In this document: positions 16,482-16,669 of the stretch, in pieces
How the letters are laid out: every line of letters begins with the position of its first letter
Numbering within the stretch: position 1 is the first letter of the stretch
Origin: Escherichia phage PhiR68_2
Length of the DNA: 49,669 nucleotides
Strand: one strand, 5' to 3'
Sequence record: PV340576.1
The notes under the pieces: generated by a model
The model's input: the letters and a program-made list of their open reading frames with translations, nothing else
Told to the model about the DNA's origin: nothing
Databases searched by the model: none
Program-made: the position numbers and the translations under genes

Positions 16482-16499
16482 TATGCCAATTGTTTACTA

Positions 16500-16532
16500 A
16501 AAATTATTAAAAATGGGGCGTTGCAACGCCCC
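16500..16532 (-). terminator. candidate terminator for nmpC transcript (hairpin GGGGCGTTGCAACGCCCC with T-run on minus strand)
   Basis: Perfect 6-bp stem/6-nt loop at 16515..16532; minus-strand downstream sequence ATTTTTAATAATTTTT. Confidence 0.4.
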
Positions 16533-16620
16533 CAAAAATAAAGGGTAATATATAACAGAAGGTTTATATAGTTAGAAGCAAGGTTGTGCTCCTAAAGGAA
16601 GTGGCTTGAGGGAGCCACTT

Positions 16621-16660
16621 ATATGTTGGGGAGGCAAAGCCTCCCGCAACATATCTTTTA
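16621..16660 (+). terminator. candidate tR'-like terminator of the short pR' leader transcript
   Basis: Long near-perfect hairpin ATATGTTGGGGAGGC-AAA-GCCTCCCGCAACATAT followed by CTTTTA; ~150 nt downstream of Q stop. Confidence 0.4.
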
Positions 16661-16669
16661 GTAATCAAA

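Follow-up and report, generated by a model that had tools for sequence, protein, structure and literature searches.

We propose that the hairpin cluster in the 188-nt gap between the Q antiterminator gene quuD and the porin stop codon side of the convergent gene nmpC (positions 16482-16669) is the structured 3' untranslated region (UTR) of the minus-strand porin gene nmpC/lc, that is, the IpeX RNA, and that the late unit of this phage lies elsewhere, at 18123-18212; we hold this assignment to be very probable. The element in the gap is already known: it is the IpeX RNA together with the nmpC terminator. All positions are those of the window, the whole stretch of 49,669 nt from Escherichia phage PhiR68_2 (PV340576.1) that was analysed.

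The whole window represents a lambdoid prophage that belongs to the DLP12/qsr' type. At its start (1-49, plus strand) lies the 3' part of a tRNA gene, which is probably the prophage attachment site, and an Rfam match to IS009 (220.9 bits) was seen at 43748-43946 on the plus strand. The genes around the gap are ordered rusA, ylcG, quuD, the 188-bp gap, the porin gene, a second gap of 589 bp, essD, rrrD and rzpD. The quuD gene (16098-16481, plus strand) codes for a Q antiterminator of the Q21/933W family (Pfam PF06530, E = 3.5e-53, with matches to PDB chains of Q21), and QuuD shares 78% identity with Q of the Shiga toxin phage 933W. The porin gene (16670-17752, minus strand) is intact and codes for an nmpC/lc-type phage porin of 360 amino acids (Pfam Porin_1, E = 3e-153), the product being labelled porin in matching genomes and phages. 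The first late or lysis gene 3' of the late promoter is the holin gene essD (18342-18557, plus strand; Pfam PF04971), which carries an essD or holin label in matching records. These flanking genes, Q, the porin and a holin from 18342, are as a previous reading of the DNA without database searches (the sequence-only reading) had described them. Positions 16000-18400 match many E. coli chromosomes and the working phage PhiR34_1 at 100% identity, and the layout Q-nmpC-holin is common to the working phages PhiR34_1 (100% identical), mEp332 and ev243. Both pR' and ipeX are unannotated in the phage records of 434B and PhiR34_1.

The gap as a whole folds far better than its shuffled versions (z = -6.4 for the plus and -8.9 for the minus strand), and none of 200 shuffles was as good on either strand. 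Three hairpins that the sequence-only reading had picked out, here called H1, H2 and H3, are present in the sequence as quoted; each folds better than its own shuffled versions, and all three were recovered by an inverted-repeat finder. H1 (16515-16532, GGGGCGTTGCAACGCCCC) has a 7-bp G+C stem and a 4-nt loop with a folding energy of about -13 to -14 kcal/mol, and it is followed by a T-run on the minus-strand side only (ATTTTTAATAATTTTT). With this T-run it forms the Rho-independent terminator of nmpC/IpeX (16505-16532, minus strand, -13.9 kcal/mol), the only site that a terminator scan of the gap reported, and on the minus strand only. H2 (16599-16620, AAGTGGCT-TGAGGG-AGCCACTT), an internal hairpin of IpeX on the minus strand, has 8-9 bp and an energy of -10.9 to -13.5 kcal/mol; no shuffle was as stable, and a U-run is absent on both strands. 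H3 (16621-16654, minus strand) starts 15 nt past the nmpC stop codon and has a 15-bp stem with one bulge (-22.7/-23.3 kcal/mol, z about -6.5/-7.0), and its 3' flank on the plus strand reads CTTTTAG. The minimum-energy fold of the minus strand contains two weaker central IpeX hairpins in addition, at 16572-16595 and 16549-16570 (local energy -11.8 kcal/mol, z = -3.7). The block is bracketed by an imperfect inverted repeat of 18 nt (16490-16507 and 16651-16668, 83% complementary), which makes up the outer stem of the predicted fold.

RNA ends were taken from curated Term-seq data of E. coli K-12 MG1655 (Adams et al. 2021, PMC7815308, supplementary file 1), in which the equivalent gap is flanked by quuD (573956-574339) and by nmpC, whose 3' end is at 574529. 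In this gap, minus-strand 3' ends are listed at 574366/574367 and at 574476, and no plus-strand 3' ends are listed (PMC7815308). By alignment, 574367/574366 correspond to 16509/16508 of the window, 6-7 nt past the H1 stem and within the T-run, and the end at 16509 is a case of classical intrinsic termination. The view that the cluster includes the nmpC terminator, which the sequence-only reading had also put forward, is thus borne out by the minus-strand T-run of H1 and by the K-12 ends that follow its stem. The strong end at 574476 aligns with 16618, 3 nt past the H3 stem, and, because there is no U-run at this position, it looks processed or protected from exonucleases; it points to either a second stable RNA, a shorter one, or an intermediate in the processing of the nmpC/IpeX transcript. 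Since only minus-strand ends are found in the gap, the RNA that bears the hairpins is the minus-strand 3' UTR of nmpC. Term-seq with bicyclomycin has also placed a Rho-dependent region at K-12 position 574331 on the minus strand (PMC7815308), which is window position 16473, opposite the 3' end of quuD in antisense orientation; the Rho-dependent stop at about 16473 is a back-up for minus-strand transcripts that escape H1. The allele measured by Term-seq is that of K-12, in which nmpC is broken by IS5, whereas nmpC is intact in the window, and we infer from the alignment that the intact allele would have RNA ends as in K-12.

IpeX has been described as a small RNA of 167 nt that originates from DLP12 and is synthesised within the porin transcript (PMC12197685). 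In the literature, it is an sRNA of both the cryptic prophage DLP12 and phage PA-2 that is transcribed from the phage porin promoter and then processed; it lowers OmpC and OmpF post-transcriptionally, reportedly without simple base pairing to ompC, and it is detected by RNA-seq in K-12. The gap of the window is 96.8% identical to the K-12 DLP12 strains over 186 of its 188 nt and 97.3% identical to the region 3' of lc in PA-2 (record J02580), so that identity to the DLP12 (K-12) and PA-2 regions is found as expected of IpeX. The position agrees as well, as the RNA follows the porin stop codon, has the strand of the porin gene and runs up to a Rho-independent terminator, and for the K-12 allele there is transcription with a defined 3' end at this terminator. 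The study by Castillo-Keller, Vuong and Misra of 2006 (J Bacteriol 188:576) reportedly located ipeX in the stretch from the nmpC stop codon to the terminator. Counting 167 nt back from a 3' end at 16509 puts the 5' end at about 16675, within the last nmpC codons. We accordingly give the extent of IpeX as 16509-16675 on the minus strand, an inferred extent in which the 3' end comes from the K-12 mapping and the 5' end is placed by the published 167-nt length only. Rfam, in which an IpeX model is absent, returned no family over the gap, either in a scan by E-value of 15800-18700 or in a scan of the whole window at gathering thresholds. The sole Rfam match within the gap, to TarB, was at chance level and was rejected.

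In this reading, transcription from the porin promoter would run through nmpC, H3, H2 and the two weaker hairpins and would stop at H1, leaving a 3' U-run about 161 nt past the nmpC stop codon. A 3' fragment of about 167 nt would then be freed by processing and, going by the literature, would cut OmpC and OmpF output post-transcriptionally, and a lysogen would thereby trade host porins for the phage porin.

Of 5426 complete E. coli genomes, 2510 have the gap sequence, in one to three copies each; in the four matches with inspected surroundings, it adjoins quuD and/or a porin gene. The 30 distinct alleles compared share the H1 stem with one exception, and the loop varies (TGCA, TCTC, TTTC and others); a steady stem with a variable loop fits a structural constraint on this hairpin. 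For the five minus-strand helices, 96% of the cells in an alignment of 14 distinct alleles pair, with only two double-sided changes; the alleles are about 95% identical, and both of these changes come from IMG/VR contigs with clustered A/T-to-G/C changes. In four such IMG/VR contigs (L074, L108, L114 and L115), the clusters are confined to the equivalent of 16599-16654, that is, to H2 and H3, and they resemble artefacts of sequencing or assembly at strong hairpins. Covariation support for single helices is weak, and conservation neither adds to nor weakens the experimental evidence. When changes that keep a G-U pair on one strand and leave a C-A mismatch on the other are compared, the few events in H1, H3 and the central helix 16572-16595 speak for the minus strand; in 16572-16595, the A/G variation opposite U keeps the pairs on the minus strand only. 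The changes in H2 favour the plus strand when the plus-strand alignment is scored, again on few events and partly through the suspect contigs. We also noted that the porin gene has been disrupted or replaced by independent IS5-family insertions, in E. coli JB2 (L119, 2501-3841) and in K-12 (L120, 1092-2286), and that in JB2 the gap is reduced to its first 64 nt.

An additional role, which would be compatible with IpeX, is that H3, perhaps together with H2, acts on the plus strand as a terminator of, or barrier to, early-operon transcripts that leave Q. In the absence of N, nmpC would in this way be insulated from antisense transcription, and about 140 nt of the Q transcript would overlap with the convergent IpeX transcript. 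The plus-strand fold of H3 (-22.7 kcal/mol) is followed by CUUUUAG, many alleles including that of K-12 have five T after H3, and no other plus-strand terminator separates the convergent genes Q and nmpC, so that H3 could be a weak plus-strand terminator, judging from the predicted fold. However, the U-run is short and interrupted, and H3 was missed by the terminator scan. For K-12, in which quuD may simply be silent, no plus-strand 3' end has been reported here, and the G-U-type variation in helices 1, 3 and 5 keeps minus-strand pairing, with H2 being mixed. We therefore consider such a second role of H3 unlikely, if still worth keeping in mind. Early N-modified transcripts from pR may cross the gap and run antisense through nmpC. 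Going further, one might speculate that H3 is a conditional plus-strand terminator or insulator, and that N-modified read-through upon induction pairs over about 140 nt with IpeX, which would end the porin/IpeX programme and free the host porins at the lytic switch; to this elaboration we give little credence.

The sequence-only reading had instead assigned the gap to late gene control: it was taken probably to hold the leader terminator tR' of the late promoter pR', on which Q would act, and in the model built on this, pR' lies in the gap too and the late transcript runs antisense through nmpC to the lysis genes. The gap does lie directly after Q, the usual place of pR' in lambdoid phages, and H3 is a strong stem that is followed by CTTTTAG on the plus strand. 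The late promoter is found at another place. A distant DNA search with the spacer between nmpC and essD matched 18122-18204 to homologous sequence that comes directly after Q in about 280 records of Stx and related phages, and in the records of 933W and Ss-VASD this homologue, directly after Q, is annotated as pR' and a terminator. Alignment to the annotated pR' of these two phages places the pR' equivalent of the window at 18123-18150 on the plus strand. It begins with a perfect palindrome, TTTACGTACGTAAA (18123-18136), which contains the -35 element TTTACG and is a candidate for the Q-binding element, and after a spacer of 16 nt the -10 element TATGCT follows at 18145-18150. The -35 element, the 16-nt spacer and the -10 element (TATCAT in 933W) are common to the window and 933W, and the 933W counterpart scores as a sigma-70 promoter. 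Next comes, at 18151-18212 on the plus strand, a conserved initial transcribed region, GTTAAGAGTGGTTAC...CACACAGCTTA, and then a hairpin at 18181-18202 with a T-run, which was found by the terminator scan (-12 kcal/mol). This leader is nearly identical to that of 933W, where GTTAAGAGTGGTTAC...CAC.CAGCTTA is likewise followed by a hairpin, AAACCCGCCG..CGAGCGGGTTT, and a T-run. The homologous hairpin of 933W is annotated as putative tR', and by this likeness the hairpin at 18181-18202 with its T-run is a candidate for the tR' acted on by Q. A small covarying hairpin (GTGG..CCAC / GTGAT..GTCAC) may form in the leader of the cassette as well.

The same cassette follows Q at related Q loci. Q relatives were taken from 30 genome loci, and the cassette is present after Q in 24 loci, which come from eight genera (Escherichia, Shigella, Trabulsiella, Pantoea, Citrobacter, Xenorhabdus, Providencia and Morganella). 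Its consensus, TTTACGWWCGTAAA - N - TATNNT - G(A/T)TAAGAGTG, is unique in the window (18123-18165), the palindrome reading TTTACG(T/A)(A/T)CGTAAA across the relatives, and most of these have a T-run hairpin of different sequence at an equal relative position. In 20 of the 23 loci for which the Q ends were compared, the cassette overlaps the Q stop codon or starts at most about 50 nt from it. The exceptions are C. amalonaticus and C. braakii, which have an insert at the junction, and L027, which has a divergent leader and, in the stretch read, lacks a T-run hairpin.

Against this background, the placement of pR' and tR' in the gap has become highly improbable. Within the window, the palindrome TTTACGWWCGTAAA (18123) and the leader core TAAGAGTGGTTAC (18153) occur in one copy each and not at all in the gap, so that the Q-family promoter cassette is absent from the place where tR' had been put. 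No plus-strand sigma-70-like site was found at 16482-16669, where a promoter just after Q had been expected, by a strict scan that also misses the real cassette, which scores 8 of 12; taken alone, this negative counts for little. The K-12 Term-seq data list minus-strand ends only in the gap, and the sole hairpin there with a proper U-run belongs to the minus strand. The claim that Q-modified polymerase must read antisense through nmpC fails as well, as the late promoter cassette sits past nmpC and before essD; a late promoter between nmpC and essD had been named beforehand as the observation that would speak against it, and it is there that the cassette was found (18123-18212).

How a late promoter came to be separated from its Q gene can be read from the same comparison. 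Because the cassette follows Q in 24 related loci, usually within about 50 nt, we consider nmpC-IpeX to be an insertion, and Q-modified polymerase need not cross nmpC. The simplest reading of the alignments is that the nmpC-IpeX unit (about 16460-18122, approximately 1.66 kb) would be an accessory cassette, or 'moron', which was inserted between Q and its cognate promoter and which carries nmpC, its promoter region and its 3' region. A comparison of C-terminal tails indicated that the conserved core of Q stops at ...LEMD and that a short tail beyond it varies in all relatives; QuuD departs from its relatives at about 16458, directly past LEMD. At this point, within the 3' end of quuD, the plus strand has a terminator-like inverted repeat, GATATCCGGTTAGAGATGGATATC (16437-16460). 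Other inserts were seen at the Q/pR' junction: 2.3 kb with three minus-strand open reading frames (a membrane-like one of 345 amino acids and two of 106 and 132 amino acids) in Citrobacter braakii (L015, 4390-6728), and 140 nt in C. amalonaticus (L013, 4369-4509). In E. coli LR-33 and phage Stx2a_1447 (L118 and L005), the porin cassette is followed by a late region of the Stx type. Accessory cassettes appear to have landed at the Q/pR' junction repeatedly.

In this arrangement, QuuD would load at 18123-18165 and suppress termination at 18181-18212, and the Q-modified polymerase would reach essD, about 185 nt past the expected start at about 18157, without crossing nmpC. In published work, Q control of the DLP12 lysis operon is ascribed to a promoter in the region upstream of essD, and in one report (PMC7918800) the promoter fragment is described as '-121 to +650', with the primer sequences not given. 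For the Stx phages of strain Sakai, the literature describes a constitutively active PR' directly 3' of Q, mapped by dRNA-seq, and a dominant end of the PR' RNA at +258. K-12 Term-seq lists no plus-strand 3' end at the hairpin proximal to pR' (PMC7815308), and a second strong terminator before essD was not predicted in the window. Because of the Sakai end at +258 and the lack of a listed K-12 end, the proximal hairpin may not be the only or the main tR'.

Finally, the gap could be thought of as a DNA-level element, either a small repeat, mobile or palindromic, of the MITE or REP kind, or the scar of an insertion, since it is dense in palindromes and its 18-nt inverted repeat, 83% complementary, spans the block; this can be dismissed as hardly credible, as RNA ends map to the gap hairpins, the A+T-rich repeat arms are simply the base of a long-range fold, and the sequence is not dispersed, with one to three copies per genome beside quuD and/or a porin gene in the four inspected matches. 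A MITE or dispersed repeat in particular was ruled out by this low copy number and the quuD/porin context, and there was no sign of mobility.

Taken together, the label of 16482-16669 should be ipeX, the nmpC 3' UTR and terminator, and not tR', and the late promoter of the DLP12-type phage belongs at 18123-18212. As the porin/IpeX cassette lies between Q and its cognate promoter, late transcription need not collide with nmpC. The significance of this goes little beyond correct annotation, and the useful correction is an architectural one.

The IpeX RNA of the window resembles that of DLP12 and PA-2 in its locus between the nmpC/lc stop codon and quuD, in its strand, in the H1 terminator and in a length that fits 167 nt. 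It differs from these by a few base changes, chiefly in the H1 and H3 loops, and by one T fewer after H3. In contrast to DLP12, nmpC of the window is intact and free of IS5, and IpeX would come from the porin promoter, as in PA-2. More generally, IpeX is similar to the sRNAs of enterobacteria that derive from mRNA 3' UTRs, as it uses the terminator of the parent mRNA, has a 3' U-run and is reportedly released by processing, whereas it differs from this class in that, according to the literature, it acts without simple base pairing to ompC. For the late unit, the closest known system is the pR'-tR' unit of 933W and Sakai, the source of the StxS RNA: 18123-18212 aligns with pR'/tR' of 933W, and the Q proteins are 78% identical. 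In 933W, the late unit overlaps the Q stop codon, whereas in the window a 1.64-kb nmpC-IpeX cassette lies in between, and, compared with StxS, the window sequence past the proximal hairpin is unrelated. The Q21 system of phage 21 is more distant, with Q21, 933W Q and QuuD all belonging to Pfam PF06530.
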